Below, one piece after another: positions 9,147-26,746 of a DNA stretch of 64,000 bases (positions within the stretch are counted from its first letter, which is position 1; the number at the start of each line of letters is the position of its first letter). The notes under the pieces are model-generated. The model searched no databases. It was not told the DNA's origin and worked only from the letters and a program-made list of their open reading frames with translations. Source of the DNA: Thermodesulfobacteriota bacterium. Its GTDB lineage: Bacteria > Desulfobacterota_D > UBA1144 > Nemesobacterales > Nemesobacteraceae. The translations under genes and the position numbers were made by a program. The DNA lies in the NCBI GenBank assembly GCA_965197885.1, contig OZ240231.1, forward strand, positions 1,166,369 through 1,230,368, in the 5' to 3' direction.

Positions 9147-9605
9147 ATGGCGAAATTTGAGTTTAAAATCATTACAAGTGAAAAAGATCTCGAAACTTAT
9201 TACAAACTTCGTGAAGATATTTTCGTAAGGGAGCAGAAGATATTCTCCGGAACCGATATTGACGAATATGACAGGGCCGCGATACACATAGCGGCCATCG
9301 AAAAAACAGGCGCGAAAATGGTCGGGGGCGTGAGGTGCTACAACCTCGAGGGAAACACCTGGGTAGGAGGCCGTCTGAGCGCAGCGCCCGGTTACCGAAA
9401 CGGCACAGTCGGTCGCCATCTCGTCAAATTCGCGGTAGAAACCGTAAAAACAAGGGGATGTGAGCGGTTCATCGCGTACGTTCAGCCGCAGAACGTGAGG
9501 TTTTTTGAAAGACTCAACTGGAAACGCTCGGGGGAGCCGATCATCTACCAGGGAAGCCCCCATCAGTTGATGGAAGCCGAGCTCGGAGCAGGGGGGAAGG
9601 CGTGA
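9147..9605 (+). CDS. GNAT N-acetyltransferase, MSMEG_0567/Sll0786-type (nitrogen-starvation cluster)
   Basis: The 152-aa protein shows the pattern FVREQKIF..D.DEYD...GGVR...W.GGRL...FIAYVQPQNV.FFERLNW...G.PH..M. This matches my recollection of that GNAT family. Its stop overlaps the AIR-synthase-like gene start (GTGA). Confidence 0.7.
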   Translation: MAKFEFKIITSEKDLETYYKLREDIFVREQKIFSGTDIDEYDRAAIHIAAIEKTGAKMVGGVRCYNLEGNTWVGGRLSAAPGYRNGTVGRHLVKFAVETVKTRGCERFIAYVQPQNVRFFERLNWKRSGEPIIYQGSPHQLMEAELGAGGKA

Positions 9606-10609
9606 GTCGCAAAGTCACGGCAGGATTCATGAAAGAACTGGCCAAGTCCCTGCGCGGTTCTGCGAGACTCAGTGAAAAAACCAACATAAGGGACATCTGG
9701 AATTTCTTCCCCCAGTTCGCAAAGGTTGAAGGAAAACAGGTGCGCCTCGGCGATGACGCGGCGGCTATTGAACATGAAAGAGGCTACTTGCTAGCCGCGG
9801 CAGAAGGGGTATATCAGCCCCTTTTGAAATCAAACCCCTATCTTGCCGGAAAAACCTCGGTCTTAACGAACGTAAACGACATCTATTCAATGGGCGGAAG
9901 GCCTCTGGCGATTCTGGATGTGCTTTGCTCCGCAGACGCTGGCAAAACGGACGAGATACTCTCGGGCATATACGATAACGCCGAAAGATACAACGTCCCG
10001 GTAATCGGAGGCCACCTAAGCGGCGAAGCGAGCGAGTTGACCCTCGCCGTATTCATCCTAGGCAAAGCCAGGAAGCTTCTTTCGAGTTTTAATGCCAGAG
10101 AGGGCGATGACCTGGTTATGGTGGTCGGCGGCGAAGGCAGATTTTATTCCGGCTTTAATTTCTGGGATTCCTCAAGCGGCTTAACCAAAACGGATGCGCT
10201 CCGGCATCTAGAGATCCTGCCCGAACTGGCGGAAGAAGAACTTGCCGACGCAGCCAAGGACATCAGCATGGCTGGCACTATCGGTTCTGTTCTGATGCTC
10301 CTTGAGTGTTCACAAAAAGGCGCTGAGATTCACATTGACGACATTCCGGTGCCACGGGGCGTCGGGTTGACCGAGTGGCTAGTTACTTTTCCGAGTTACG
10401 GTTTCGTTCTTTCCCTGAGGACGGAGAGAACTTCGGCAGTCCGCAGGAAATGCAGGGATCACGGCCTTTTATGCGAGAAAATCGGAGAGATTCGCGTGGA
10501 GCGGAAAGTCTATTTCAAGAACAAAGACAATCACAAGGAGCTTTTCTGGGATCTTGGGCGGGGATATTACATGGAACCCCCCGAATCGAAGGAGGCGGCC
10601 AATGAATGA
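9602..10609 (+). CDS. AIR synthase-related (PurM/ThiL-fold) protein, sll0787-type
   Basis: A GDDAAAI motif is followed by TNVNDIYSMGG and GGHL, hallmarks of the PurM-like ATP-grasping superfamily. Length is 335 aa. It lies immediately downstream of the GNAT, as in Nit1C clusters. Confidence 0.75.
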   Translation: MSRKVTAGFMKELAKSLRGSARLSEKTNIRDIWNFFPQFAKVEGKQVRLGDDAAAIEHERGYLLAAAEGVYQPLLKSNPYLAGKTSVLTNVNDIYSMGGRPLAILDVLCSADAGKTDEILSGIYDNAERYNVPVIGGHLSGEASELTLAVFILGKARKLLSSFNAREGDDLVMVVGGEGRFYSGFNFWDSSSGLTKTDALRHLEILPELAEEELADAAKDISMAGTIGSVLMLLECSQKGAEIHIDDIPVPRGVGLTEWLVTFPSYGFVLSLRTERTSAVRRKCRDHGLLCEKIGEIRVERKVYFKNKDNHKELFWDLGRGYYMEPPESKEAANE

Positions 10610-11189
10610 GCAGAACAAGGAGATTGAACGTATAGTCGCGAGAGTTGGAGAAAAGATAAAAACTATCCGGATGGAAAAAGGGTGGTCCCTTAAAAACCTC
10701 TCGGACAGATCGGGTATATCCGCGGCCGCCATCCACAAGATTGAATCAAACGGAATTACTCCAACCATAACCACCATGATGAAAATTTCCGACGCGCTCG
10801 GGAAAAAAGTAAGCAATTTCGTCGAAGAGGAACCGGGAGACAAAGATGTTTGCCTGATAAATTCAAACGAGCGCAAACCCGTATTCACTTTTAAAAAAGG
10901 TCTGGACCTGCAGGGAATATCCGCCAAGCAGTACGGAGAGTTCATCATGACCGCCGCGTACGCCACGGTGGAAGTGGGCGCCTCAAGCGGCAAAAAAAGC
11001 ATGAGTCACCGAGGGGAAGAACTGGTTTACTGTCTGCAGGGAAAAATGAGATTCGAAGTAAACAAGAAAACTTATGATCTGCGGGCCGGAGACAGTATGC
11101 ATTTCAGAACCCATCTGGACCACAAATGGAAAAATATCGGAAAAGTTCCCGCGAAATTGCTATGGGTGCTTTCTATCGAGGCTTCCTAA
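10602..11189 (+). CDS. XRE-family HTH transcriptional regulator with C-terminal cupin domain
   Basis: ATG 10602 follows an AAGGAGG RBS. The N-terminal HTH_3 region reads IRMEKGWSLKNLSDRSGISAAAIHKIESN. The C-terminal cupin carries the GDSMHF...HKW pattern. It overlaps the upstream stop by 8 nt. Confidence 0.85.
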   Translation: MNEQNKEIERIVARVGEKIKTIRMEKGWSLKNLSDRSGISAAAIHKIESNGITPTITTMMKISDALGKKVSNFVEEEPGDKDVCLINSNERKPVFTFKKGLDLQGISAKQYGEFIMTAAYATVEVGASSGKKSMSHRGEELVYCLQGKMRFEVNKKTYDLRAGDSMHFRTHLDHKWKNIGKVPAKLLWVLSIEAS

Positions 11190-11200
11190 GGAGTTGTTCC

Positions 11201-12490
11201 GTGAGCGCTGAGAGAAAAACAAAAGAACCTGATTTGCCAGAGCGCATTGACGCCGCAAACGCCTACGCGCTTGAGATGCTGCTTTCCGTTGAGCCTGCCC
11301 TCGCGGGAGTGGAAAGGGCCCTTGACGTCGTTCCCGGAATGACTTCCACAACCGTTTTGCACGCGGGTCCGCCGATCGGCTGGCGCAGGATGTGCGATCC
11401 GATGAAAAGAGCCGTGCGGGGTGCGCTTATATTCGAGGGGCTGGCAAAGGACTCTTCGGAAGCTGAAAAAATAATACTGAAAGACAAAATAACCCTTTCC
11501 CCGAATCACCACCATGGCTGCGTCGGACCTATGACGGGGATAATCTCCGCTTCAATGCCGGTGGTCGTCACGAAGGACCTGAGGACCGGAAAAAAAGCTT
11601 ATTCCACGTTTAACGAAGGCGGCGGGCAGGTGCTTTGGTTCGGATCGTTCGGAGAGGAGACACTACAGCGCCTCAGGTGGATAAGAGACAAATTCGCCCC
11701 CGTTATGAAAAAAGTATTTGCAAGCGCCGAGGCAATTTCAGTGTGGAACATACTGTCTCAGGGAATACAGATGGGAGACGAATGCCATAACCGCCACGGT
11801 GCTTGCACCAACATTTTTCTGAAAAATATCGCCGAGCCTCTTTTCTCTCTGGGCATCCCGCGCGCAAACGCCATGTCCGCTTACAGGTTCATGTCCGCAA
11901 ACAGCCACTTTTTTCTTAACTTTACCATGACCGCATGCAAGCTTGCCACAGATGCCGCCCACGATGTCGCCGGCAGCACATTGGTTACCGCCATGTCAAG
12001 AAACGGAACCGACTTCGGCATAAGGGTAAGCGGGCTCGGAAACAGGTGGTTCGTGGTGAAGTCACCCTATCTCCAAGACGCTCTTTACAACCTCGGTTAC
12101 GGACCGAAAGACGCCGCCCCAGACATAGGCGACAGCTCCATCATCGAAACAATGGGGCTTGGGGGGTTCGCAATGGCCGCCGCCCCTTCCATGGCGTCAT
12201 TTGCCGGAGGAGGGTTCAGCGACGCAGTGGATATTACAAGCAGTATGAATCTCATTACGACGGTGAAAAATCCCAAGTTCGCGATACCTTCCCTGGATTT
12301 TCAGGGAACGCCGACCGGGATTGACATAAGAAAGGTGGTCGACACGGCGATACTGCCAAGCATAAACAGCGCGATTGTGCATAAAAGCTCGGGAGCGGGG
12401 CAGATAGGAGCCGGAATAGCCAAAGCGCCTTACGGGTGCTTCGAAAAAGCGCTTCGGGCGTTTGGAAAACGACATGATTTAGCGGCATAG
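11201..12490 (+). CDS. DUF1116 protein (E. coli YlbE/AllG-like)
   Basis: GTG 11201 follows a TAAGGAG RBS. The motifs LHAGPPIGW..M..PMK.A..GA.IFEG.A and HH..VGPMTGI.SASMP match my recollection of YlbE. Confidence 0.7.
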   Translation: MSAERKTKEPDLPERIDAANAYALEMLLSVEPALAGVERALDVVPGMTSTTVLHAGPPIGWRRMCDPMKRAVRGALIFEGLAKDSSEAEKIILKDKITLSPNHHHGCVGPMTGIISASMPVVVTKDLRTGKKAYSTFNEGGGQVLWFGSFGEETLQRLRWIRDKFAPVMKKVFASAEAISVWNILSQGIQMGDECHNRHGACTNIFLKNIAEPLFSLGIPRANAMSAYRFMSANSHFFLNFTMTACKLATDAAHDVAGSTLVTAMSRNGTDFGIRVSGLGNRWFVVKSPYLQDALYNLGYGPKDAAPDIGDSSIIETMGLGGFAMAAAPSMASFAGGGFSDAVDITSSMNLITTVKNPKFAIPSLDFQGTPTGIDIRKVVDTAILPSINSAIVHKSSGAGQIGAGIAKAPYGCFEKALRAFGKRHDLAA

Positions 12491-12512
12491 GTTATAAAGC
12501 GAGAGGTACGTA

Positions 12513-14075
12513 TTGGTAACGCTCAATACCGTAAAACAGAACCATTACCAGGATTCGATGAAGCTTATGCAGATAAGCAGAGAGCTTGCTAATTCTCCCG
12601 GTATCAAAAAGGCTTCGGCCATAATGGCCACTGAAGCGAATTTAAAAACGCTTCGGGACGCGGGATTAATAAAAACCGCGTCGCGCTCACTCGGCGCGAA
12701 CGATCTTATAATAGCGGTTGAGGCAGAATCGGAGACGGCAGGCCACGACGCCTTGGGAAAAATCGATTCCTTTCTGACCGCGCCGCCAGATGGAGTTGGC
12801 CATACAGCCGGATACCGAAGCTTTGAAGAGGCCCTAAGAGCCCCGGGCAACCCGAACATCGCCGTTATCTCCGTTCCGGGGGAGTTTGCGAAACTTGAAG
12901 TCGCAAGAGCCATAAAAAACAACATTCACACCTTTCTTTTCAGCGACAACCTGAGTGTCGGCGAAGAGGTTGAACTAAAGCGAAGAGCCGCGCGCAAGGG
13001 ATTACTTATGATGGGGCCGGGATGCGGTACTGCGATAATAAACGGCGCGGGCTTTGGGTTTGCCAACATCGTAAGACGGGGACCGGTAGGGATTGTCGCC
13101 GCCGCAGGTACGGGCATGCAGGAAGTAGCAAGCCTGATTCATAACTGGGGAGTCGGCGTTTCTCACGGAATCGGGGTCGGCGGAAGGGATCTTTCCGAGA
13201 AAGTGGGCGGGCTGATGGCAATCAAGGCCATGGAACTGCTCGAGAAAGATGAAAACACGGAGATCATTCTGCTGGTCTCAAAGCCGGCTCCGATAAAGGT
13301 AATAGAAAAAATAATCGAAACGGTGCGGCGAGGAAAAAAACCTTTCGCGATGTGCCTGCTCGGGGAAAACGGAATTGAAGCGGAGAAAAACGTGTTTTCT
13401 ACCGATACGCTCGAAGAGTTGTCTTTGCTTGCAGTAAATCTCGCGGGCGGGCAAGGAGGCAAGCGGATCAGAGTTTCCGATGCCGGCCTGAAAAGATACG
13501 GAAGGAATTTCGTCAACTCGCTTCGCCCTTCGCAGAAATACGTAAGGGGGTTGTTTTCAGGTGGCACCCTGTGTTACGAGGCCCAGAAAATACTCACCTT
13601 GTCTCTCGGAAAGATTTATTCAAACGCACCTTTGTCAAAAGACTGCCTGCTTGGCGATTCACGCAAAAGCCGCGGGCACTGCTGCGTAGATCTCGGCGAA
13701 GAAGAGTTTACCGTCGGACGCCCCCATCCGATGATCGACTCCACGCTTAGAAGCGAAAGGATAATCGAGGAAGCAAAAGATCCCCAGACAGCGGTAATTC
13801 TCCTCGATATCGTACTGGGCTACGGCTCAAACGCCGACCCCGCCGGGGAACTTCTCCCGGCCATTGGGCAAGCAAGACAAATAGCTAAAAACAAAAACAG
13901 ATCGCTCGCCTTCATCGCGCACGTGTGCGGTACGGATGACGATCCTCAGAATCTTGACTTGCAGGAGAAAAAGTTAAGGAGAAACGGCATAAAAATTGCA
14001 ACAACTAACGCTCAGGGAGCCAGGGCCGCGGCCTTGATCGCGCGGCTTGCGTCAGAGAGGAGAGCAAGGCGATGA
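12513..14075 (+). CDS. fdrA: FdrA-family protein (succinyl-CoA-synthetase-alpha-like; E. coli FdrA/AllF-like)
   Basis: The start is TTG behind GAGAGG. The N-terminal YQDSMKLMQIS...MATEAN domain is followed by CoA-ligase-like Rossmann segments (ISVPGEFA, MGPGCGTA, AAAGTGMQE). Length is 520 aa. Confidence 0.8.
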   Translation: MVTLNTVKQNHYQDSMKLMQISRELANSPGIKKASAIMATEANLKTLRDAGLIKTASRSLGANDLIIAVEAESETAGHDALGKIDSFLTAPPDGVGHTAGYRSFEEALRAPGNPNIAVISVPGEFAKLEVARAIKNNIHTFLFSDNLSVGEEVELKRRAARKGLLMMGPGCGTAIINGAGFGFANIVRRGPVGIVAAAGTGMQEVASLIHNWGVGVSHGIGVGGRDLSEKVGGLMAIKAMELLEKDENTEIILLVSKPAPIKVIEKIIETVRRGKKPFAMCLLGENGIEAEKNVFSTDTLEELSLLAVNLAGGQGGKRIRVSDAGLKRYGRNFVNSLRPSQKYVRGLFSGGTLCYEAQKILTLSLGKIYSNAPLSKDCLLGDSRKSRGHCCVDLGEEEFTVGRPHPMIDSTLRSERIIEEAKDPQTAVILLDIVLGYGSNADPAGELLPAIGQARQIAKNKNRSLAFIAHVCGTDDDPQNLDLQEKKLRRNGIKIATTNAQGARAAALIARLASERRARR

Positions 14076-15019
14076 AACTGGCCGTCGTTGCTTTCGGAGG
14101 TAACGCGTTTTCAGGTGATAAGAATCATGGAACACACCGAGATCAATTCGCTTTCGCGGAAGATATATCAGGGGAATTGGTGAAACTTGTGGAATCGGGT
14201 TACGGAATCGTCATAACTCACGGAAACGGACCCCAGGTGGGAAACCTTCTGCTCCAGCAGGAATATGCTTCTTGCGCGGCCCCACCCATGCCCGCCGACG
14301 TATGCGGCGCGATGACACAAGGCCAGATCGGATACTTAATCGTTCAAACGCTGAGAAATCACCTCAGAAAAAACAATGTAGATAAACCCGTTGCGGCCAT
14401 CATTACCCAAGTAGTGGTAGACGAAAATGACGAAGCTTTTTCAAACCCGACGAAATTCATAGGACCGTTTTTTGACAAGAAAACCGCCGACTCTCTTAAG
14501 AGAGAGAAAGACTGGAAGATAGAAGAAGACTCTGACAGGGGATATAGAAGGGTCGTGCCTTCGCCAAAGCCGGTGGACATAGTGGAGAAAAAAGAGATCG
14601 CAGACATGATAGGAAGAGGTTTTATCGTCGTTGCGTGCGGAGGGGGCGGAGTGCCGGTTGTCCGCGGGAAAACCGGTGAACTCAGGGGAGTAAGCGGCGT
14701 GATCGACAAAGATCTGGTTTCAGAAAAACTTGCGACTCTCATTGGGGCCGAGACCCTTGCCATAATTACGCCCGTGGACAAGATATCGCTGTTTTTCGGA
14801 ACTAAACGGCAGGTGGACTTAGAGAAAATAACTACAGACGAAGCGGAAAAATACCTTGAGGAAGGACATTTTCCGCCCGGAAGCATGGGTCCCAAGATAG
14901 AAGCGGCGATAAGGTTCTTACGAAAAGGCGGCAAACGCGTGGTGATAACGTCGGCGAAATCGACAACTAAAGCTCTTGAGGGGAAAAAAGGTACTGAAAT
15001 AGTTAATGGGATGAATTAA
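14072..15019 (+). CDS. arcC: carbamate kinase
   Basis: The motifs VVAFGGNAF, ITHGNGPQVGNLLLQ and ACGGGGVPV are present. Length is 315 aa. The ATGA overlap with fdrA suggests translational coupling. Confidence 0.9.
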   Translation: MKLAVVAFGGNAFSGDKNHGTHRDQFAFAEDISGELVKLVESGYGIVITHGNGPQVGNLLLQQEYASCAAPPMPADVCGAMTQGQIGYLIVQTLRNHLRKNNVDKPVAAIITQVVVDENDEAFSNPTKFIGPFFDKKTADSLKREKDWKIEEDSDRGYRRVVPSPKPVDIVEKKEIADMIGRGFIVVACGGGGVPVVRGKTGELRGVSGVIDKDLVSEKLATLIGAETLAIITPVDKISLFFGTKRQVDLEKITTDEAEKYLEEGHFPPGSMGPKIEAAIRFLRKGGKRVVITSAKSTTKALEGKKGTEIVNGMN

Positions 15020-15133
15020 AATGAAATCAATGAGTGGTGACAAGCCTCATAACATAAACGGGTTAAAGGACAGAAATTCCGGGAGGTCCCGGAGAGTAAA
15101 ACATAATAAATATCTTTTTTAGGAGGTGCAGTA

Positions 15134-15625: not shown

Positions 15626-15689
15626 GGTTTTAAACTCCACGTTGTTGTCCAGGTAATACCGCTTCTTCTTGAAGTTGCGGACAGTTTTA

Positions 15690-15716
15690 ATCCGCTTGCC
15701 AGCGGGGCAAGCGGAT
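15690..15716 (+). other. perfect 11-bp intra-operon hairpin without a T-tract
   Basis: ATCCGCTTGCC, an AGCGG loop and GGCAAGCGGAT lie in the 128-nt gap between the Sll0783-like and radical SAM genes. Confidence 0.5.
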
Positions 15717-15753
15717 AGGGTGTTGTGTGAAATAAAAACGCTGGGGGTGAAAA

Positions 15754-16884
15754 ATGGATTCCAGAACCCTTAAGGTAGAGTTGCAAAGTTACGGTTTGAG
15801 AATTCCTGATTCCAAAAATATCAGGCGAGGGGGCGCCGGTCCCACGGGAGGAATTCATCTGAGGATTCTTCCCGATACCGACGCGAATGTACCGGTTGTT
15901 GGCGATTTCGTAGAATCTTCGCCGTATCATCTTGACAAGATAAACGGCGAAGACTGGATTTTCCGAGATGAAGTGGCTTTAGTACAGGTCGAGCTTATGG
16001 GTAATGGAAGGTTTTACGACCACAAAACCTCAAGCGGAATACCGATGCAGAGAATCGGACTTCTGCACTGCCCGACCACTTTTGCCACGACTCTGCTTCA
16101 GACCTGTGATTTCTGGAAGGACGAGAGAAGGTGTCAGTTCTGCGGAATAGAACTTACTCTCAAGGACAGAAGTACCGTCGGATTCAAAAACGCAAAAGCG
16201 CTTGTTGAAACAATTCAACTCGCAAAGGAACTCGACGGCATTTCCAACATTGTCTTTACTTCCGGCGTTGCACCTGACGAGGAAAAAGCGCTTGAAAAAT
16301 ACGCCGAGATATGTTCCGAGGTTAAAAATCATACAGGGCTTCCGATTCAGCTGCAGATTGTTCCCCCCGAAGACCTGGGCTGGCTGGAGAGGCTGAAATC
16401 TTCGGGGGTGGACGCTCTCGGAGTCCATATTGAAACATTCGACCCGGAGGTATTCGAAAAAATAACCCCGGGCAAGGCTATGATAGGACTTGACAGGTAC
16501 ATAGAGACTTGGAAAGAGGGCGTAAGGGTTTTCGGTAGGTGGGCGGTAAGCACCTATATTCTGGTCGGGCTCGGCGAAAGGCTGGAAACGGTTATCGAGG
16601 GCGCGGAGATTTGCGCAGAGATAGGGGTTTATCCCTTCATCGTGCCTTTCAGGCCTATCGCAGGCACCCCGATGGAAAACGTAATGCCGCCGAGGGCCGA
16701 AGTTATGGAATACGTGTATTCCGAAGCCGCCAAGATTCTGTCCAGATACGACGGAGGGTCCAAAAGCGGCGTGGCCGGCTGCGTAAGTTGCGGGGAATGT
16801 TCCGTGCTTCCCGATTTTGAGAGGCTGCACGAGTCAAAAACAGTAGAGTTTAAAAAATTCATAAAGTCGGTCCCGGTAAATTGA
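15754..16884 (+). CDS. radical SAM protein, MSMEG_0568-type
   Basis: A Cys cluster C118-x8-C127-x2-C130 (TCDFWKDERRCQFCG) is followed by a TIM-barrel-like core. A C-terminal CVSCGEC motif is also present. Length is 376 aa, and the context is the Nit1C-type cluster. Confidence 0.7.
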   Translation: MDSRTLKVELQSYGLRIPDSKNIRRGGAGPTGGIHLRILPDTDANVPVVGDFVESSPYHLDKINGEDWIFRDEVALVQVELMGNGRFYDHKTSSGIPMQRIGLLHCPTTFATTLLQTCDFWKDERRCQFCGIELTLKDRSTVGFKNAKALVETIQLAKELDGISNIVFTSGVAPDEEKALEKYAEICSEVKNHTGLPIQLQIVPPEDLGWLERLKSSGVDALGVHIETFDPEVFEKITPGKAMIGLDRYIETWKEGVRVFGRWAVSTYILVGLGERLETVIEGAEICAEIGVYPFIVPFRPIAGTPMENVMPPRAEVMEYVYSEAAKILSRYDGGSKSGVAGCVSCGECSVLPDFERLHESKTVEFKKFIKSVPVN

Positions 16885-16949
16885 GACGGGGAAAATCATG
16901 ATCCGAAGCCTCGTCACTCTGGATTGCGGATTAAATCAAGGAGACGCAG

Positions 16950-19615: not shown

Positions 19616-20798
19616 CATAGCGCTTTTCACCTATTCCACAAAACCCAGAGGAGGAGTGGTGCACACGCTTAACCTGGCGGAAAAACTGGAAGAACTTGGC
19701 CAGAAGGTTCATGTTTACGCGCTCGGGACGGAAGGCGGATTTTTCAGAGAAGTTGACGTTCCACACACTCTGGTGCCGTGTCCGAAAAACGAATTCGCCG
19801 GTATGGACGAAAAAATCCACGCCTATATAAAAGCATATGTCGATTACCTGAGCGGCCTTGACGAAACCTACGACATCTATCACGCCGAGGACTGCATATC
19901 AGCAAACGCGCTTTTGGATATAAGGCAAAGAGGTCACATAGAATTTTTTCTGAGAACCGTTCATCACGTTGACGATTTCGTATCGGAATCTCTCGTGGAA
20001 TGTCAGATGAAAAGCATAACGAGACCCGACCACCTGCTGGTCGTAAGCAATTACTGGGAAAAGGAACTCGCCGACAAATACTCCCTCAGACCGCTGCGGG
20101 TAAGAAACGGCGTTGACCTATCCAAGTTTCACGGCACGGCCACCCGAAGCAAAACCCCCGAGGCCTCGAAGCTTGAATTTTCAGCCGGCGGATGCAAGAC
20201 GGTTCTCACGATCGGCGGTATTGAACCCCGGAAAAACACGATATCAACCCTAAGGGCGTTTGCCCGGGTAAAAGCGCGCTTCGCGGTAAAGGACAAGCGG
20301 GTAATCTGGCTGCTTGGAGGCGGGGAAACGCTTTTTGACTACAGGGATTACCGCAAGGAGTTTTTCTTCGAGATGGAAAAACTGGGAATAGAAGAGGGAA
20401 AAGATATTTTCATTCTGGGAAGGGTTCCCGAAGAACTGATTGCCGATCTTTATAACGCTGCTGACGTTTTCGTTTTTCCCTCGTTAAAAGAGGGCTGGGG
20501 ACTCGTGGTGCTCGAAGCCATGGCTTCCGGAGTGCCGGTTATAGCATCCGACATAGAGCCGCTTACTGAATTTATGGAAGACGGGAAAAACTCCCTGCTT
20601 GTCTCCCCTCTGGATTGCGGGGCTCTCGCGGAGGGAATTATCAGAATACTGGAAGACGGGGCGCTGCGTGAAAAACTCAAAACCGGCGGCACGGACACCG
20701 CGGGACAATACGGATGGGACCGTGTGGCGCTTGAACATTTGAACATATACAGGGATATACTGAATACGGGTGTTTCGCACGTAGCGGAAAAGAGGTGA
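19602..20798 (+). CDS. GT4-family glycosyltransferase, MSMEG_0565-type
   Basis: ATG 19602 follows GGAGG. The N-terminus reads FTYSTKPRGGVVHTL, and the C-terminal GT-B E-x7-E region reads FPSLKEGWGLVVLEAMASGVPV. It overlaps the DUF2877 stop by 14 nt. Confidence 0.8.
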   Translation: MKRLNIALFTYSTKPRGGVVHTLNLAEKLEELGQKVHVYALGTEGGFFREVDVPHTLVPCPKNEFAGMDEKIHAYIKAYVDYLSGLDETYDIYHAEDCISANALLDIRQRGHIEFFLRTVHHVDDFVSESLVECQMKSITRPDHLLVVSNYWEKELADKYSLRPLRVRNGVDLSKFHGTATRSKTPEASKLEFSAGGCKTVLTIGGIEPRKNTISTLRAFARVKARFAVKDKRVIWLLGGGETLFDYRDYRKEFFFEMEKLGIEEGKDIFILGRVPEELIADLYNAADVFVFPSLKEGWGLVVLEAMASGVPVIASDIEPLTEFMEDGKNSLLVSPLDCGALAEGIIRILEDGALREKLKTGGTDTAGQYGWDRVALEHLNIYRDILNTGVSHVAEKR

Positions 20799-20803
20799 AA
20801 ACA

Positions 20804-21196
20804 ATGAAAGTCGAGGCAACCTGGAAAAAAAACTATCAGGTGACCGTAAACGCAAGGCAGTTCGATATACCGGTTGACGAGGCGCCCGAATTCAGCGGGG
20901 ACGATACGGGGATGATGCCCACGGAGCTTTTTTTGTGTTCCCTGGCTTCATGCTTCTGTCTTGCCATCGTCTACGCGGCGAGCAGAAGGAAAATCGCGCT
21001 AAAAGACCTAAAAGTTGACGTTACGGGCGAGAAGGATAGGAGAAAATTTTTGTTTTCCAAGTGTATCATCAATGTTAAAAGCTCCATTGCCCGAACCAGC
21101 CTTGAAGACCTTATGGATTCGGCGAAGCGCTACTGTTTCATTACAAACACGATCAAGGGAGGCTGTCCGATCGAATACAGCGTAAACCCGGAGTGA
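20804..21196 (+). CDS. OsmC/Ohr-family protein
   Basis: The two conserved Cys contexts are present (LCSLASCF and RYCFITN). The protein is about 130 aa. An alternative GTG at 20795 overlaps the GT stop. Confidence 0.75.
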   Translation: MKVEATWKKNYQVTVNARQFDIPVDEAPEFSGDDTGMMPTELFLCSLASCFCLAIVYAASRRKIALKDLKVDVTGEKDRRKFLFSKCIINVKSSIARTSLEDLMDSAKRYCFITNTIKGGCPIEYSVNPE

Positions 21197-21208
21197 CGGA
21201 GCATATAA

Positions 21209-21664: not shown

Positions 21665-21690
21665 TTTTCCCCGCGTGGAGGAGAAATTCA

Positions 21691-22275
21691 ATGAGTATAC
21701 GAAACCCCAAGGAATTAAAGGAAGTTCTCTCAAAACCCGAGAATCTGGGCAAGGCGCTCAGCAGGCACACCTACGGTATGCTATCATGGGTTGATCTGTT
21801 CGGTGCCAAGCTTCCCTCGGTTAACGGTATCGAAACCAAGATTATTGTCTCAAGAATAGTTGCCGATAATGCTAGGCATTCGAAACTTTTTTCCGACAGA
21901 GCAAAAGAGCTTGGCCAAAACCCCCAATCATACAGACCCCCTGAAATTGGACAGGAAATCTACGATCTTCTCGATACCTACAACGATACGTTTGACTGTC
22001 TCGCGTACGCCTGGGGATCGCTTGTGCATTTCAAGGAACTGCTGGAACTGTACATAAGCGTTGCCGACTCTCGAAGCCGGGAAATGCTACTTGAGGTGAA
22101 AAAAGACGTCGAGGGTCATTTATTGATGCTGCTGGGGTATTTCCAATCGCAAGCCGACAGCAATTCAAAAAAAGACCGCGCGGAAACCATAAAGACCGTT
22201 GCCGAAGATAAGTACGCCGAAAGAGAGGAACAAGAAATAAACTGGTACTCGCTTCCCGATGTCCCAAACGTTTGA
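21691..22275 (+). CDS. hypothetical all-alpha protein (possibly ferritin-like helical bundle)
   Basis: ATG 21691 follows GGAGGAG. The 194-aa sequence is helix-rich, and no clear di-iron ExxH pairs were seen. Confidence 0.5.
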   Translation: MSIRNPKELKEVLSKPENLGKALSRHTYGMLSWVDLFGAKLPSVNGIETKIIVSRIVADNARHSKLFSDRAKELGQNPQSYRPPEIGQEIYDLLDTYNDTFDCLAYAWGSLVHFKELLELYISVADSRSREMLLEVKKDVEGHLLMLLGYFQSQADSNSKKDRAETIKTVAEDKYAEREEQEINWYSLPDVPNV

Positions 22276-23098
22276 ACAGCTTCGAAAACCTCTGCCTCCC
22301 TACTCGGCGAAGAACATGTATTACAAGCTTCTCGCCGCTTTTCTCAGGACGTTCGGGAGACTGTCATACGGAATTGACACGGGGTTTACCTACGGGTTCG
22401 ACTCGGGAATTATCATGAACTACATCTACGATAACAAGGCGCGGGGAAGATTCGGCGTCGGGCGGGTTCTTGACAGGATGTTTCTGGATCAGGTTACGTG
22501 CAGAGCTTTCAGATCGATAAAGCAGATACAGATTGACATGATTGGTCAATATCTGCGGGAAAGGGATGAAAAGCCAACTTTCATAGTCGATCTCGCCTCG
22601 GGCAAAGCGGACTACATCTACGAAATCCTCAAATCATCCAACCGCAAACTTAAAGTCCTGCTCTGCGACATAGCGGAATCCTCTCTTCGCGAAAGCAGGA
22701 AAATCACAGATGAACTGGGTTTTGGCGATAAAGTGAGGTTCCGCCAAGGCGATGCGCTTGATACAGAAAATCTCAGATGTATAGAACCGAGGCCCGATCT
22801 TTTGATCGAGGTCGGCCTTTACGGGATCATACACGACGACGCCCTCCTGCGCGCCCACCTGCTTGATGTCGGAGAGATTCTTTGTCCCGAGGCTATCCTT
22901 TTTAACGTCCAGACGCAAAACCCGCAAATAGAGTCAATCGCGAGGGTTCTTCAGAACCAGCACGGAGAAAGATGCGTCTGGCATCTTCGGTCGGTGGAGA
23001 AAATCGTCAGCTGGGCGAGAGAAGCAGGATTCAGGGACCCTGAAATCGTAATGGACCCTTATAATATATACGCCGTTGTAATGATGAGGGGAAAGTAA
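22259..23098 (+). CDS. class I SAM-dependent methyltransferase
   Basis: Motif I-like segment FIVDLASGKADYI is followed by an acidic motif II (LLCDIAESS) and GDALD. Length is 279 aa. Confidence 0.7.
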   Translation: MSQTFEQLRKPLPPYSAKNMYYKLLAAFLRTFGRLSYGIDTGFTYGFDSGIIMNYIYDNKARGRFGVGRVLDRMFLDQVTCRAFRSIKQIQIDMIGQYLRERDEKPTFIVDLASGKADYIYEILKSSNRKLKVLLCDIAESSLRESRKITDELGFGDKVRFRQGDALDTENLRCIEPRPDLLIEVGLYGIIHDDALLRAHLLDVGEILCPEAILFNVQTQNPQIESIARVLQNQHGERCVWHLRSVEKIVSWAREAGFRDPEIVMDPYNIYAVVMMRGK

Positions 23099-23149
23099 TA
23101 AGATAGTGTTTTCCGGGATGAGTGATAACACAAATTCGGAGTTGCGCAA

Positions 23150-24559
23150 TTGAGCCAAAAACGGTTCGTACTAGGCTGGCAGTCGCAATCGGAAACATTG
23201 CCGCTGCTTGAGAGAACAAAATCCGGAAAACTGGATTCCGTCACGCAAAGCCCGCATGGAATGTGGAACTACATGACCTACAGGGACGCAATAAATATCC
23301 TGGGCATGGATCCGGCACGGATATATACTGACGGCAGAATTGACCTTGATCCGGAGCAGTGGGCCGACTTCGGCTGGATGCTCTGTCACTGTGGTCCTCC
23401 CGAAAGCGCGGTTCGGGAAATGAAAAAACGGACATTGCGCTCCAATATAAACCCCTACTCTCCCGATCTCATAAATCCTCTCAGGGATTTATGCGCCGAA
23501 TCTGTGTTCAAACGCAAAAGAGGTGGGGATTTCGAAGTGATAGGCACAGAGGGTGCGCAGGCGGGCATCTCCTATGTCCTTAACTCGTTTACGAATCCCG
23601 GCGATGAGGTAATAATCACCGACCCCGGTTACTTTCATTTCGAATCGGCAATCCTGATGGCGGGAGGAATCCCGGTAAAAACAACGCTTGACGCCGGTAA
23701 TGGGTTCAGGCTCGACCCGCTTGAAATTAAAAAGCTAATTTCCGAAAAAACGAAGATCATAATAGTCTGCGATCCGATAAACCCTTTCGGCACGATACAG
23801 AAAAAAGAGGAGCTAATGTCACTAATCGAGATCGCTAGGGATAACGACATCATAATAATAAACGACATAACCCATAACACGCACCGGATCAATCCCCGTA
23901 GCGAGCATTTTCCCATGAGTTCGCTTTGCAAAGAAACGAACACCGACAACGTGGTTTCGATCTACAGCGTCTCGCACGGGTACGGAATGGCCGCCGTTCG
24001 CATCGGTTTTCTCGCGGGACATCCGGATATCATGAAGGCGTGTCTCATGACGAAAATCTCCATGACGCGCCTCAACACCAACCTGATCGCCCAGTATGGA
24101 GCTCTGGCCGCTCTTAAGGACGCCGACTACATAACTGAAACAGAGGAGATTATCAGAACAAATTACCGTTTCATAAAAGACGTCGTGGCTCGCACTCCGG
24201 GAATAGAAATACCCGTCGAACCGAGTTACGGATTTTCCATGGTGATAGACGTAAGCGGCACAGGAGTAACGGCACAGGAACTGACAGTCTCTCTGTTTAA
24301 AAGAAAGATAGCCGTGTACCCCGGCGACGGTCTCGGGGACAGCGGCGCCACTGACTACGTCAGACTGAATTTTTCGCATTCCGACCAGCGGGCACTAAAA
24401 AGATTCGAAGATTCGGTCGATGAATCTATAAAAGAAGCCCAGACGGGTATTTACACGGAAGGCGTAATAAGGTTTTTCGAACAAAAACAAAACGAGAGGG
24501 CAGGATGGATCCTTCGGAAATTGAAAAACAGGTCAAAGGGCCGTCAAGCGGCATACTAG
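23150..24559 (+). CDS. fold-type I (class I/II) aminotransferase homologue lacking the Schiff-base lysine
   Basis: The protein has the motifs CDPINPFGT and VRLNFSH. The PLP-Lys motif reads SVSHGYGMAAVRIGF, with His (CAC 23975-23977) where S-x-S-K is expected. The start is uncertain (TTG 23150 or ATG 23261). Confidence 0.75.
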   Translation: MSQKRFVLGWQSQSETLPLLERTKSGKLDSVTQSPHGMWNYMTYRDAINILGMDPARIYTDGRIDLDPEQWADFGWMLCHCGPPESAVREMKKRTLRSNINPYSPDLINPLRDLCAESVFKRKRGGDFEVIGTEGAQAGISYVLNSFTNPGDEVIITDPGYFHFESAILMAGGIPVKTTLDAGNGFRLDPLEIKKLISEKTKIIIVCDPINPFGTIQKKEELMSLIEIARDNDIIIINDITHNTHRINPRSEHFPMSSLCKETNTDNVVSIYSVSHGYGMAAVRIGFLAGHPDIMKACLMTKISMTRLNTNLIAQYGALAALKDADYITETEEIIRTNYRFIKDVVARTPGIEIPVEPSYGFSMVIDVSGTGVTAQELTVSLFKRKIAVYPGDGLGDSGATDYVRLNFSHSDQRALKRFEDSVDESIKEAQTGIYTEGVIRFFEQKQNERAGWILRKLKNRSKGRQAAY

Positions 24560-25473
24560 ATCAAATAGGCAACACACCGCTTGTAAAGTTAAGCAACATT
24601 AGTTCCGGCCGTATCCCGAATTTTTACGCTAAACTCGAGTTCTTTAATCCTTCCGGAAGCATAAAAGACAGGGTGGCGCGATACATACTGGAGATTTCCG
24701 AAAAGAACAATCTATTAGAACCCGGAGGTCTGATAGTTGAATCCACCTCGGGTAATATGGGACTTTCCTTCGCGCTGATCGGTACGCTTAAGGGTTACAG
24801 GTGCCTGTTCGCCATTCCGGAAACCATAAGCGAAGAAAAAATAAAAACCCTCAGGCTGTTCGGTGCCGAGGTAGTTCTCACGCCGAGGGGACTGCCTCCG
24901 AGCGATGAGAGAAGCTGTTACAAGGTCGCTCAGAAAATCGCAAAGGAAAGGGGTGCCCTGTACATTAATCAGTACTTCAACGAGTTAAATCCCGAGTCGC
25001 ACTACCACTCGACGGGCCCCGAGATATGGAAACAGACCGCAGGGATGGTGGACGAAGTGTTTTGCGGTATAGGAACCGGAGGCACCATAAGCGGAGTCGG
25101 GAAATATCTTAAGGAAAAAAACCCCGGCATGAGAATGATAGGGGTGGAACCCGTGGGTTCGGTATTCAGTGAATATTACAGGGAAGGCACCGTCCCGCAG
25201 GCCGGCAATTTTGAAGTGGAGGGCATTGGAAAAAACTTTATTCCAGGGACACTTGATTTTGACTTCGTTGACGACGTGGTTCAAGTAAGCGACAAGCGCT
25301 CTTATGAGGCCGTAAACGACTTGATAAGCAGCGAAGGGATCCTTGCCGGAGGATCCGGCGGCGCCGTCATCGCGGCGGCGCTCGATTATTCCGGGTCGCT
25401 TGAAAAAAACCGGTGCGTCGTAGTAATACTGCCCGACACTGGACTTAAATACTTGTCGAAATTCGCCGTTTAA
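24505..25473 (+). CDS. cysteine synthase/cystathionine beta-synthase-family PLP enzyme (fold type II)
   Basis: The motifs NPSGSIKDR (PLP Lys), STSGNMG and GIGTGGTISG are present. Length is 322 aa. Confidence 0.85.
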   Translation: MDPSEIEKQVKGPSSGILDQIGNTPLVKLSNISSGRIPNFYAKLEFFNPSGSIKDRVARYILEISEKNNLLEPGGLIVESTSGNMGLSFALIGTLKGYRCLFAIPETISEEKIKTLRLFGAEVVLTPRGLPPSDERSCYKVAQKIAKERGALYINQYFNELNPESHYHSTGPEIWKQTAGMVDEVFCGIGTGGTISGVGKYLKEKNPGMRMIGVEPVGSVFSEYYREGTVPQAGNFEVEGIGKNFIPGTLDFDFVDDVVQVSDKRSYEAVNDLISSEGILAGGSGGAVIAAALDYSGSLEKNRCVVVILPDTGLKYLSKFAV

Positions 25474-25489
25474 CGCAATCCGTCATGTC

Positions 25490-26746
25490 ATGAAAAATAT
25501 TGAGCCCGCATACGTTGACAACCTTGTCAAGAGATACGGAAGCCCTTTATTCCTGGTATCCGCTGAAACACTTGAAAACAACGTCAGAGCATTTAAAAAG
25601 ATGTTCCGCGAAAAATACCCGAAGACCGAAGTCGCCTACGCTTACAAAGCAAATTATCTATCTCAGATTCTAAAGATAATCCACGAAGAAGGTGCTTGGG
25701 CCGAGGTCGCCTCCGGATTTGAATACGATATAGCAAGAAAACTGCAGGTTCCGGGCAGTGAAATAGTTTTTAACGGCCCCGGCAAAACCAAAGAAGATCT
25801 ACGCACCGCGGTTTCGCAGGGGGCGTTGGTAAACGTTGACAATGAAGATGAAATCAGCCTGCTTGGCGAGATTGCCAGCGAACTCAAAAGTTCCCTAGAC
25901 ATTGGAATCAGAATCAATGCGGATGTTGGAATAAATCAGAAAATTGACAGATTCGGCTTTAATCTTGAAACCGGAGAGGCATTCAGAATAGTGGGACTAT
26001 GCAAGGCGACAGGGGTTCTTAACGTCATCTGCCTCCACTTGCACCTAACAAGCTATATAGTTGAGACGGATGGGGAGGAAAAATATACGCCCGCGCAAAA
26101 CATAAAGCTTATCTGGCCCAAAAACGCCGACATGTATGAGATCGCCGCCAAAAAGATTTCAAGGCTGGTAAAAAGAATAGAAAAAGAACTTGGCGCCGAA
26201 ATAAAATATATAGACCTTGGCGGAGGGTTTCCCTCAATAAAAGACCTGAGCATCTATGTAAGCAAGGTGACGGAACCTTTAATCCACGAATTCGGAGAAG
26301 ACGGGCCGATTTTGCTTCTGGAGCCAGGAAGAGCTATCGTAAAGGACGCGATTTCCCTTATAACGACCGTGCTTGGTTCAAGGGAACTTGAAAACGGGCA
26401 GAGGGCTGTAACGACCGATGCCGGAATAAACAGCCTTCCCACTTCGTACTGGAGTTCCCAGGAGGTAAGACCGCTTAGACCTTCCAGAGAAAAGTTAAGA
26501 AACACAATAATATACGGTCCTTTATGTCTTCAAACGGATATCATTGCCAAAACACTCATAAACGAATTTGAGCGTGGGGATAAAATCGTCGTGGAAAACG
26601 TGGGAGCATACAACATTCCCCAGGGAAGCCCTTTTATTTACCCAAGACCCTGCGTCGTTATGCTCCAAGGCGCCGCGGCACGGGTGATCAGAAGAACTGA
26701 AACGGTTAATGACTTTTGGGAACTTGAAGAAGTAACGGATACCTGA
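25490..26746 (+). CDS. fold-type III PLP-dependent decarboxylase (ornithine/diaminopimelate decarboxylase family)
   Basis: The motifs YAYKAN (PLP Lys), DLGGGFP, EPGRAIV and GPLCLQTD are present. Length is 418 aa. Confidence 0.85.
   Translation: MKNIEPAYVDNLVKRYGSPLFLVSAETLENNVRAFKKMFREKYPKTEVAYAYKANYLSQILKIIHEEGAWAEVASGFEYDIARKLQVPGSEIVFNGPGKTKEDLRTAVSQGALVNVDNEDEISLLGEIASELKSSLDIGIRINADVGINQKIDRFGFNLETGEAFRIVGLCKATGVLNVICLHLHLTSYIVETDGEEKYTPAQNIKLIWPKNADMYEIAAKKISRLVKRIEKELGAEIKYIDLGGGFPSIKDLSIYVSKVTEPLIHEFGEDGPILLLEPGRAIVKDAISLITTVLGSRELENGQRAVTTDAGINSLPTSYWSSQEVRPLRPSREKLRNTIIYGPLCLQTDIIAKTLINEFERGDKIVVENVGAYNIPQGSPFIYPRPCVVMLQGAAARVIRRTETVNDFWELEEVTDT

Follow-up and report, generated by a model that had tools for sequence, protein, structure and literature searches.

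Introduction

What becomes of a Nit1C-type gene cluster when its nitrilase is missing? The question is raised by a locus in a 64-kb stretch of a Thermodesulfobacteriota genome (contig OZ240231.1, positions 1,166,369 to 1,230,368; this whole stretch is called the window here, and positions are counted from its first nucleotide), in which members of the Nit1C gene set are packed together with genes of carbamoyl phosphate metabolism. Nit1C was described in 2005 by Podar et al. as a seven-gene cluster whose ORF1 product has 160-163 aa, and in the literature searched it is defined by its nitrilase (PMC1199592). It corresponds to nitBCDEFGH of Pseudomonas, sll0783-0787 of Synechocystis and MSMEG_0565-0572 (gpr) of Mycobacterium smegmatis (PMC6039565). 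The cluster has been tied to nitrogen starvation, polyhydroxybutyrate (PHB)/NADPH balance, peroxide resistance and cyanide assimilation, while its non-nitrilase enzymes are without an assigned reaction. In M. smegmatis, nitrogen starvation induces it more than 500-fold in a GlnR-dependent manner (PMC6039565), and in Pseudomonas it is needed for the assimilation of cyanide nitrogen (PMC7815647, PMC11049912). As published surveys start from the nitrilase, they cannot see relatives that do without it.

We conclude that the locus is very probably one conserved functional unit of 21 genes, comprising 19 co-directional genes (g1-g19) and a divergent pair at 7648-8958 that encodes an Amidohydro_2 enzyme and a Zn-ribbon protein, and that it belongs to a nitrilase-free sister class of the Nit1C / sll0783-0787 / MSMEG_0565-0572 (gpr) clusters. 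We refer to the published Nit1C type as class A and to the nitrilase-free type as class B.

Results

The locus shares five families with Nit1C and lacks three

Families were assigned with NCBIfam hidden Markov models (HMMs) at their curated cut-offs and with Pfam HMMs (Table 1). Five open reading frames (ORFs) exceed the curated cut-offs of Nit1C/MSMEG_0565-0572 families, namely g1 (GNAT), g2 (AIR-synthase-like), g7 (Sll0783-like), g8 (radical SAM) and g12 (family 4 glycosyltransferase, GT4). These five families are common to the locus and to the known clusters; both show the same operon-like packing, and the radical SAM, GNAT and AIRS-like genes form the core common to both, with the GT4 gene optional in Nit1C (only some class A clusters have it) and present here. 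An earlier note on this DNA had held that every accessory Nit1C member was in place, which is borne out for these five and fails for MSMEG_0569 and MSMEG_0570. Set against the seven-gene definition (PMC1199592), the locus contains ORF1 (YchN-like), ORF3 (radical SAM), ORF4 (GNAT) and ORF5 (AIRS), whereas ORF2 (nitrilase), ORF6 (a protein of ~100 aa) and ORF7 (a COG2072-type flavoprotein) have no counterpart.

The earlier note's claim that the nitrilase is absent was upheld: tblastn with 21 nitrilases of the Nit6803 (TIGR04048) type found none in the 64-kb window (best E value 0.036), although the reference nitrilase is readily detected (TIGR04048, 583 bits). Likewise, 15 MSMEG_0569 and 13 MSMEG_0570 queries found no member of either family in the window, and none of the three query sets gave a match better than E value 0.03.

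Two genes that the earlier note had counted as Nit1C members turned out to belong elsewhere. The flavoprotein g9 is not an MSMEG_0569 protein (TIGR04046): the HMM does not recognise it, and BLASTP against a validated member (664.7 bits) returned only an E value of 0.09. Its best NCBIfam match is to CoA-disulfide reductase (CoADR; 272.5 bits, below the cut-off of 578.8), Pfam finds Pyr_redox_2 and the dimerisation domain, and its matches in the Protein Data Bank (PDB) are NADH oxidase (Nox; 6ruz, E value 5.6e-56), CoADR (4fx9) and CoA-persulfide reductase (8a56), with NADH peroxidase (Npx) also among its relatives. The cysteine expected of this group (motif SxxC(G/A)(L/I)P) is Cys48, in YSPCGIP, and is kept in at least 95 % of 19 homologues. 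The 86-aa product of g10, which had been called MSMEG_0570-like, gave no match to that family (TIGR04042) or any other at E value ≤1, and hhalign against 13 validated members returned a probability of 0.3 %. The g10 gene adjoins a g9-type flavoprotein gene wherever it was detected, in both Dadabacteria and Actinomycetota. A non-homologous pair of flavoprotein and small protein thus stands in place of MSMEG_0569/MSMEG_0570 and, with the nitrilase also missing, the locus is without all three class-A-specific proteins. In their place it carries Amidohydro_2, AllF/AllG/AllH and carbamate kinase; further genes beyond the Nit1C set encode the CoADR-type flavoprotein with its 86-aa partner, a helix-turn-helix (HTH)-cupin protein, OsmC, a heme-oxygenase-like protein, a methyltransferase and three pyridoxal phosphate (PLP) enzymes.

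The shared proteins retain family-specific features. The g2 product has the Pfam domains AIRS and AIRS_C and falls in the ATP-using type of the PurM/ThiL/SelD/HypE superfamily. In the g7 family (NitB), Cys116 is kept in at least 95 % of 48 members of classes A and B and is invariant in a 24-sequence alignment. A search of the PDB with the g7 family profile gave one weak match, to the DsrE/DsrF-like 3mc3 (E value 0.012); the protein is probably DsrE/YchN-like, judging from this match, and the Sll0783-like family had earlier been predicted to be YchN-like or DsrE-like (PMC1199592, PMC6039565). The radical SAM protein g8 has the cluster motif Cx8Cx2C (C118, C127 and C130) and not the canonical Cx3Cx2C, together with a C-terminal CxxCxxC (C343, C346 and C349); the cysteines of both motifs are invariant in an alignment of 13 diverse family members. 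Radical SAM proteins from Dadabacteria are only 36-47 % identical to those of class A and other non-Dadabacteria.

Nitrilase and class B genes are mutually exclusive across 84 loci

The radical SAM profile, run against GTDB genomes (one per species), gave at least 594 confirmed matches, of which the best 80 loci were kept. Loci were taken with up to 10 kb on either side and searched by tblastn with the window proteins; their ORFs were clustered, antisense shadow ORFs were removed and cluster representatives were annotated with HMMs. Co-occurrence was then counted in 84 loci with an MSMEG_0568-family radical SAM gene (individual loci carry L numbers below). The nitrilase is present in 21 of the 84, Amidohydro_2 and/or AllF/AllG/carbamate kinase in 40, and no locus combines the two. 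Every locus with MSMEG_0569 or MSMEG_0570 also has the nitrilase, and none of these is of class B; Amidohydro_2, AllF, AllG and carbamate kinase never occur in a class A locus, and none of the 40 class B loci has a nitrilase gene within 10 kb in either direction. What the earlier note had described as a single expanded locus is instead one lineage's version of a widespread nitrilase-free class.

Class A (21 loci; Cyanobacteria and Proteobacteria) comprises Sll0783-like, nitrilase, radical SAM, GNAT, AIRS, optional GT4, MSMEG_0570 and MSMEG_0569 genes, i.e. the published Nit1C. Class B (40 loci) was found in Dadabacteria, many Actinomycetota, Bacillota and Neomarinimicrobiota, and further look-ups added a Chloroflexota genome and marine metagenome contigs, so that the class is present in at least five phyla (Dadabacteria/Thermodesulfobacteriota, Actinomycetota, Bacillota, Neomarinimicrobiota and Chloroflexota). 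Its clusters carry Sll0783-like, radical SAM, GNAT and usually AIRS and GT4 genes, plus Amidohydro_2, AllG, AllF and carbamate kinase, and often add the HTH-cupin regulator, OsmC, the triad of g15, Methyltransf_20 and aminotransferase genes, and the g9/g10 pair. A third arrangement, class C (Desulfobacterota and archaea; L013-L026, L052, L085 and L086), combines the radical SAM gene, often fused to GNAT, and AIRS with neighbouring genes for an FMN reductase and an ABC importer of the NMT1/SsuA type; Sll0783-like, nitrilase and AllFGH genes are missing from these neighbourhoods, which suggest an anaerobic nutrient-scavenging cassette.

Five Dadabacteria-type loci keep the full gene order at protein identities of 40-88 %, and conservation of the order in relatives this distant indicates that it is more than chance. 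The closest radical SAM and Amidohydro_2 homologues (97-100 % identity) lie on metagenomic contigs, those with a name being assigned to Candidatus Dadabacteria or Thermodesulfobacteriota. Class B loci outside Dadabacteria differ from the window in gene order and strand layout. The nitrilase-free clusters of Actinomycetota (Solirubrobacterales, Conexibacter, Pseudonocardia, Nonomuraea, Leekyejoonella and Actinomycetospora), Bacillota, Chloroflexota, Neomarinimicrobiota and marine contigs (loci within L017-L089) have the class B signature in common with the window. Those of Actinomycetota add a small gene, c15, and sometimes genes for an XcbA-family protein and an XcbD-like lyase. Compact marine clusters combine AllG-carbamate kinase-AllF-AllH with a GlcD/GlcF-like 2-hydroxy-acid dehydrogenase, which the window does not have, and are without the AIRS-like enzyme and GT4. 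Only the Dadabacteria version has the PALP enzyme (g18) and the stand-alone AllF N-terminal domain (g14); the decarboxylase (g19) was found in just one locus besides. In a neighbour-joining tree of the radical SAM proteins, class A and Actinomycetota class B form separate clades and Dadabacteria a long separate branch; as the tree has no support values, we draw no conclusion from it on the origin of class B.

The XcbA-family (DUF7714) protein was found in eight class B loci, one from Bacillota (L035) and seven from Actinomycetota (L047, L057, L058, L064, L071, L073 and L080). The same eight loci encode an XcbD-like enzyme of the adenylosuccinate lyase type (552.6 bits, just under the cut-off of 600). 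Outside these clusters, both families have a known place in the biosynthesis of coenzyme M in bacteria.

Amidohydro_2, encoded divergently in the window, is the most conserved protein of class B

The earlier note had missed the Amidohydro_2 gene that lies divergently to g1, although it encodes the class-B-specific protein that is the most conserved of the system. The Dadabacteria protein is 53-57 % identical to most Actinomycetota counterparts (44-47 % in three loci) and 81-87 % identical to those of Chloroflexota and Neomarinimicrobiota, whereas most other class B components are ~35-48 % identical across phyla. Residues H13 and H15 (HxH), H156/H158, H187, H195 and D246 are invariant in 28 homologues, and the protein shows the family features, i.e. 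a TIM barrel with HxH on strand 1, further histidine ligands and an aspartate on strand 8. Its AlphaFold2 (AF2) model (mean predicted confidence, pLDDT, 91.4) was matched by Foldseek to LigI lactonase, ACMSD, dihydroxybenzoate (DHBA) decarboxylases, IDCase and LigJ hydratase (TM score ~0.65, 13-19 % identity), and a sequence search of the PDB gave one marginal match only. The modelled fold class is clear, and the fold search does not settle the reaction type.

The position of this gene is informative. In class A, the nitrilase gene lies between the Sll0783-like and radical SAM genes. In Actinomycetota, the Amidohydro_2 gene occupies the same interval, usually with c15, and in the Dadabacteria-type loci L006, L008, L011 and L012 it lies within the operon between the carbamate kinase and Sll0783-like genes; it is directly upstream of the Sll0783-like gene in these four and in L029, L087 and L088. 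In-line Amidohydro_2 genes thus occupy or adjoin the nitrilase slot, beside the Sll0783-like gene and upstream of the radical SAM gene, and in the window the gene has moved to a divergent position but is retained. The Zn-ribbon gene, which is predicted to be co-transcribed with it, is also present in the Chloroflexota locus L087, and the pair is syntenic with the 19-gene block in L001, L003, L004, L007 and L009.

The window Amidohydro_2 is only 60-63 % identical to the in-line proteins of its sister Dadabacteria (L006/L008/L011/L012), as against 81-87 % to those of Chloroflexota and Neomarinimicrobiota. The Sll0783-like protein of the window has the opposite pattern (74-82 % to the same sister Dadabacteria, 45 % to L029). 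These opposite identity patterns suggest a xenologous replacement of the Amidohydro_2 gene together with the Zn-ribbon gene.

The locus encodes homologues of all oxamic transcarbamylase subunits and a carbamate kinase

The carbamoyl-phosphate/FdrA module that the earlier note had described was recovered in full, including the AllG/DUF1116 and AllH/DUF2877 families, as were its regulator, OsmC, methyltransferase and three PLP enzymes. All four proteins of E. coli allFGHK (fdrA-ylbE-ylbF-ybcF) have homologues in the locus: g4 is 42 % identical to YlbE/AllG over 413 aa, g5 is 36 % identical to FdrA over 515 aa, g6 is 36 % identical to YbcF/AllK, and g11 is 29 % identical to YlbF/AllH, over the C-terminal 128 aa only. 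The AllG, AllF and carbamate kinase genes are contiguous, the start of g6 overlapping the stop of g5. Orthologues of g14 in L001 and L003 match PF27530 (HMA_AllF_N). The sequence matches show a complete homologue set of oxamic transcarbamylase (OXTCase) and carbamate kinase, for which carbamoyl-transfer activity is predicted.

Purified E. coli AllFGH interconverts oxalurate plus phosphate and carbamoyl phosphate plus oxamate, and allFGH forms an operon with the catabolic carbamate kinase gene allK (PMC11326118). The window module differs from this arrangement in being set in a radical SAM/GNAT/AIRS cluster and not beside allB, allC, allD and allE, in the placement of AllH 3.5 kb away with four core genes in between, and in having an additional lone AllF N-terminal domain. 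None of the allantoin-pathway genes allB, allC, allD and allE was found among the annotated ORFs of the window, the E. coli locus (L090) serving as comparison, and allantoin-derived oxalurate is an unlikely substrate of the module.

The c15 gene mentioned above encodes ~209 aa without a Pfam or NCBIfam match (Actinomycetota loci within L024-L081; L029:16380-16985; L087:18324-18968). It lies beside Amidohydro_2 in Actinomycetota and between AllG and AllF in Neomarinimicrobiota and Chloroflexota, and loci that contain it have no recognisable AllH. A divergent AllH was rejected on sequence (hhalign probability 0.03 %); given its position between AllG and AllF in L029, c15 is a possible functional substitute for AllH.

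Extent of the locus and a candidate control region

The ORFs between 9147 and 26746 are all on the forward strand and tightly packed, with junction spacings of -64 to +128 nt. As reported in the earlier note, they are co-directional with overlaps or short gaps, and all seven junctions that it quoted are correct (GTGA at 9602, ATGA at 14072, GTGA at 20795, and overlaps of 8 nt at 10602, 14 nt at 19602, 17 nt at 22259 and 55 nt at 24505). Its count of 20 ORFs is one too many: we found 19 consecutive ORFs, and the only gaps above 100 nt (15020-15133 and 15626-15753; 114 and 128 nt) hold no ORF longer than 34 aa that could be a twentieth. Internal starts with better Shine-Dalgarno sequences are available for g4 (11201), g11 (18617) and g15 (21691), with which the long overlaps vanish; the internal start of g15 also agrees with the lengths of its homologues (188-204 aa).

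Downstream of g19 synteny stops, the next gene being OprB in L001 and a MoxR/VWA pair in the window. As this pair is absent beside the cluster in every other locus, we left it out of the unit. The surroundings are ordinary chromosome, GC content is even across the locus and nothing points to a mobile island.

The divergent intergenic region upstream of g1 is 188 nt long. It contains an inverted repeat, GGTTCC-AA-GGAACC (9024-9037), upstream of a sigma-70-like element (TTGACC at 9082-9087, a 17-nt spacer and TAATGT at 9105-9110). A TTGAC..ACTAAA.TTGATA block and an inverted repeat are kept at the same position in L001, L003, L007 and L009, and we infer from this alignment that the region is a candidate promoter with an operator. 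Scans for generic promoters and terminators gave no excess over the shuffled expectation, and the promoter-like block was singled out by the comparative alignment only. A search for sigma-54 promoters found none in front of g1 or in the gaps inside the block, with no more matches over the whole window than chance predicts, and no riboswitch or other known RNA was detected between 6000 and 30000 at E value ≤1.

Table 1. Genes and control region of the nitrilase-free locus (window positions; where two scores are given, the second is the cut-off)
Feature	Positions	Strand	Basis
Amidohydro_2 metal-dependent hydrolase/decarboxylase-type enzyme, 285 aa	7648-8505	-	PF04909, 59.7 bits
FmdB-family Zn-ribbon protein, 122 aa	8590-8958	-	TIGR02605, 48.2 bits; PF09723
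Divergent control region, candidate (inverted repeat, sigma-70-like promoter)	9024-9110		Comparative alignment
g1, GNAT, MSMEG_0567/Sll0786 family	9147-9605	+	TIGR04045, 145 vs 68.45 bits
g2, sll0787-family AIR-synthase-like	9602-10609	+	TIGR04049, 330.1 vs 321.3 bits (narrow margin)
g3, HTH_3 and cupin regulator, PuuR-like architecture	10602-11189	+	PF01381 and PF07883
g4, AllG/DUF1116, OXTCase subunit homologue	11201-12490	+	PF06545, 263.5 bits; longest ORF from 11126
g5, AllF/FdrA	12513-14075	+	NF004760, 454.6 vs 433 bits
g6, carbamate kinase	14072-15019	+	TIGR00746, 377 vs 358.25 bits
g7, MSMEG_0572/Sll0783 (NitB) family, 163 aa	15134-15625	+	TIGR04044, 171 vs 109.85 bits
g8, MSMEG_0568-family radical SAM	15754-16884	+	TIGR04043, 334.2 vs 303.7 bits
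g9, single-cysteine pyridine-nucleotide-disulfide oxidoreductase, Nox/CoADR/Npx group	16950-18299	+	NCBIfam, PDB, Pfam
g10, conserved small protein, 86 aa	18322-18582	+	No NCBIfam/Pfam family
g11, AllH/DUF2877	18617-19615	+	PF11392, 76.8 vs 25 bits; longest ORF from 18551
g12, MSMEG_0565-family GT4 glycosyltransferase	19602-20798	+	TIGR04047, 392.9 vs 259.85 bits
g13, OsmC-like	20795-21196	+	PF02566, 75 bits
g14, stand-alone AllF N-terminal domain, 151 aa	21209-21664	+	NF004760, partial (residues 7-91 = profile 6-92)
g15, helical protein	21691-22275	+	No Pfam/NCBIfam match; longest ORF from 21604
g16, Methyltransf_20 S-adenosylmethionine-dependent methyltransferase	22259-23098	+	PF12147, 182.9 bits
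g17, class I/II PLP aminotransferase-fold	23150-24559	+	PF00155, 112.7 bits
g18, PALP beta-replacement enzyme (CysK/CBS/cysteate synthase/SbnA-like)	24505-25473	+	PF00291, 264.7 bits
g19, ornithine/diaminopimelate (DAP)/arginine-decarboxylase-fold PLP enzyme, last gene of conserved block	25490-26746	+	PF02784 and PF00278

Remaining accessory genes

The regulator g3 matches PuuR (NF007408) at 66 bits, below the cut-off, and is conserved in class B Actinomycetota at 33-48 % identity. Homologues of g15 are named rubrerythrin, bacterioferritin or ferritin-like by their sources. Its AF2 model (pLDDT 88.8) resembles CADD/CT610 and TenA (Foldseek TM score 0.73-0.75), with BesC and ADO also among the matches, all at weak E values (≥2e-3), and H26, H63, H113 and H143 are invariant. 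The model points to a heme-oxygenase-like/ferritin-like protein, an assignment of fold class only, and the protein possibly binds two metals. All NCBIfam matches of the three PLP enzymes fall below cut-offs; the best for g17 are PRK06225 (181 bits) and GntC (164 bits), and g19 matches LysA (218 bits) and FslC (199 bits).

Discussion

A nitrogen-mobilising pathway with a carbamoyl phosphate exit is the favoured mechanism

We tentatively propose that class B encodes a nitrilase-independent version of the pathway, in which a ureido intermediate would give up its nitrogen in the form of carbamoyl phosphate, which would then yield NH3, CO2 and ATP. The core enzymes would convert the substrate into an intermediate with an N-carbamoyl (ureido) group, and the Amidohydro_2 enzyme would take over, by hydrolysis or decarboxylation, the step that falls to the nitrilase slot in class A. 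AllFGH would then phosphorolyse the ureido group to carbamoyl phosphate, as the E. coli enzyme does with oxalurate, and carbamate kinase would convert carbamoyl phosphate into NH3, CO2 and ATP. Both classes would be nitrogen-mobilising, class A with nitrile hydrolysis as its exit and class B with the release of carbamoyl phosphate and conservation of energy. The CoADR/Nox-type flavoprotein and its 86-aa partner, OsmC, the heme-oxygenase-like protein, the methyltransferase and the three PLP enzymes may provide lineage-specific tailoring or protection, and g3 is likely a ligand-sensing regulator that would act at the conserved promoter/inverted repeat upstream of g1.

We favour scavenging or catabolism over the making of a nitrogen-rich small molecule, which the earlier note had left as an equal option, on several grounds. 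The class-specific gene sets are mutually exclusive, and the Amidohydro_2 gene lies in or beside the nitrilase slot. A carbamate kinase clustered with a transcarbamylase, as in the arginine deiminase, agmatine and allantoin/oxalurate pathways, runs in the catabolic, ATP-yielding direction. The arginine and agmatine deiminase pathways follow the same logic, from ureido group to carbamoyl phosphate and on to NH3, CO2 and ATP, although the transcarbamylase of the locus is of the unrelated three-subunit AllFGH type. The marine arrangement, AllG-carbamate kinase-AllF-AllH with a GlcD/GlcF-like dehydrogenase, mirrors the E. coli order AllD, AllFGH, AllK. The importer beside class C clusters suggests nutrient scavenging, and class A is induced by nitrogen starvation and has its role in the assimilation of cyanide nitrogen.

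Several points weigh against this mechanism. The structural relatives of the Amidohydro_2 enzyme are decarboxylases, lactonases and hydratases and not C-N hydrolases, so it is not a like-for-like substitute for the nitrilase. The E. coli AllFGH assay ran in the synthetic direction, with carbamoyl phosphate and oxamate as substrates (PMC11326118), and AllFGH, like carbamate kinase, works reversibly. A recognisable AllH is limited to Dadabacteria and the marine clusters, Actinomycetota carrying the unrelated 209-aa c15 protein. The glycosyltransferase, the methyltransferase, GNAT and the three PLP enzymes look more biosynthetic than catabolic, and no nitrogen-control signal, whether a sigma-54 promoter, a riboswitch or another of those searched for, was found at the locus. 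The absence of the nitrilase covers the 64-kb window and, in the other loci, flanks of at most 10 kb on either side. Taken as a whole, the identity of the locus together with this mechanism is our best explanation, and we put its chances at slightly below even.

The strongest alternative is a biosynthetic cluster, in which carbamate kinase would make carbamoyl phosphate, AllFGH would carbamoylate an amide or amine acceptor, the AIRS-like enzyme would activate, cyclise or pass on the ureido group, and GT4, GNAT, the methyltransferase, the heme-oxygenase-like protein and the PLP enzymes would build or decorate a nitrogen-rich (ureido/guanidino) molecule. The enzyme complement speaks for it, as GT4, GNAT, Methyltransf_20, aminotransferase-fold, SbnA/CysK-like PALP and DAP/ornithine-decarboxylase-like enzymes are typical of the assembly of non-proteinogenic amino acids and natural products, and the best matches of g17 include GntC and, also below its cut-off, VioD, which form cyclic guanidines. 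The XcbA-family protein and XcbD-like lyase of the eight class B loci would fit a guanidino construction resembling arginine biosynthesis, with carbamoylation and an ATP-using AIRS-like enzyme, and the direction in which AllFGH kinetics were measured, together with the reversibility noted above, suits this reading too. Against it, compact class B clusters dispense with GT4, AIRS, the methyltransferase and all PLP enzymes, keep Amidohydro_2, radical SAM, GNAT, AllFGH and carbamate kinase and add the catabolic-type GlcD/GlcF dehydrogenase, and the induction of class A by nitrogen starvation is hard to square with the making of a nitrogen-rich product. To our knowledge, moreover, all characterised dedicated carbamate kinases beside transcarbamylases are catabolic. 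We regard a biosynthetic role as unlikely, while granting it appreciable weight.

A role in redox or peroxide protection is clearly less probable. Here, a low-molecular-weight thiol, persulfide or redox cofactor would be made and recycled, with the DsrE-like protein as sulfur carrier, a BioB/LipS2-like radical SAM enzyme inserting sulfur, GT4 and GNAT acting as in mycothiol/bacillithiol synthesis, the CoADR-type flavoprotein reducing a disulfide and OsmC as peroxidase. The M. smegmatis cluster does give peroxide resistance and raise the NADPH/NADP ratio (PMC6039565), the phenotype of a Synechocystis sll0783 mutant is tied to NADPH and PHB (PMC3901256), and the locus has the matching parts, i.e. 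a single-cysteine flavoprotein of the CoADR/Nox/CoA-persulfide reductase type with conserved Cys48, a g7 family with one cysteine kept almost throughout and a weak DsrE/DsrF match, and OsmC. The next-best matches of the GT4 protein include MshA and BshA, and the radical SAM protein has a partial LipS2 match, but these similarities are far below family cut-offs and no cysteine ligase is present. AllFGH, carbamate kinase and Amidohydro_2, the defining and best-conserved parts of class B, would be left without a role. Among the 29 class B loci outside Dadabacteria, the g9-type flavoprotein was detected in only 8, its g10 partner in 5 and OsmC in 8.

Finally, a chance juxtaposition of a degenerate Nit1C remnant with independent oxalurate/carbamoyl-phosphate and amino-acid operons of no common function is essentially excluded, for although the gaps of 114 and 128 nt leave room for internal promoters and four core genes separate AllH from AllG, AllF and carbamate kinase, the modules are interleaved (GNAT-AIRS-regulator-AllG-AllF-carbamate kinase-0572-radical SAM-flavoprotein-g10-AllH-GT4) in an order kept in Dadabacteria at the identities given above, the same families co-occur in other orders in four other phyla, and no other allantoin-pathway gene is among the annotated ORFs of the window.

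Meaning for Nit1C and for the AllFGH family

In the literature searched, we found no description of a nitrilase-free Nit1C architecture and no link of the cluster to DUF1116, DUF2877, FdrA or carbamate kinase, in agreement with the earlier note, which had regarded the architecture as undescribed; the term MSMEG_0568 did not occur in the part of the cluster literature that was searched for it. The individual families are all known and already named by NCBI models, and what is new is their nitrilase-free combination.

This combination constrains the common intermediate. In at least five phyla, the core comes with the nitrilase, MSMEG_0569 and MSMEG_0570 replaced together by a set that consists of Amidohydro_2, an OXTCase-type carbamoyltransferase and carbamate kinase, and none of the loci examined combines this set with the nitrilase set. 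Comparison of the classes thereby separates an invariant core from an exchangeable periphery, and the recently discovered AllFGH transcarbamylase family gains a setting other than allantoin degradation. Cultured Actinomycetota that carry class B (Conexibacter, Pseudonocardia thermophila, Leekyejoonella and Actinomycetospora) make the question open to experiment.

A more speculative extension, which we consider rather unlikely, is that the nitrilase set (with MSMEG_0569 and MSMEG_0570) and the Amidohydro_2/AllFGH/carbamate kinase set are interchangeable exit modules of one ancient radical SAM pathway, whose core would handle an endogenous nitrogen-carrying metabolite, with nitrogen leaving in the form of either a nitrile or a ureido group. 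In that case, the Nit1C intermediate would be directly revealed by the substrate specificity of the AllFGH homologues, and class B would add substrate-level ATP formation to nitrogen mobilisation.

Surroundings of the locus in the window

The rest of the window contains guaA, guaB, an outer-membrane protein gene, mltG, proB, gyrA, an NtrB/NtrC-like pair, glnA, a group II intron and type II secretion genes. The MoxR-type AAA ATPase and VWA-domain pair directly after the locus spans 26870-28998 on the forward strand. A 1002-aa protein (36120-39128, forward strand) has six cadherin-like beta-sandwich repeats and a C-terminal glucose/sorbosone dehydrogenase (GSDH) beta-propeller.

The NtrB/NtrC-like pair consists of a PAS histidine kinase (45821-46921) and a sigma-54-dependent response regulator (46993-48408) and lies ~1.4 kb upstream of the glutamine synthetase gene (49809-51266), with a reverse-strand ORF (48412-49068) in between. 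This group is ~20 kb downstream of the locus, before which no sigma-54 promoter match was found. A complete-looking group II intron (51363-53071, reverse strand) lies between glnA and a tRNA gene (53764-53848), where the sequence is rich in GC; it encodes a reverse transcriptase/maturase (51363-52799; RVT_1 and GIIM), and its RNA domains were detected as RF01998 (52786-52861) and RF02001 (52902-53071, 144 bits).

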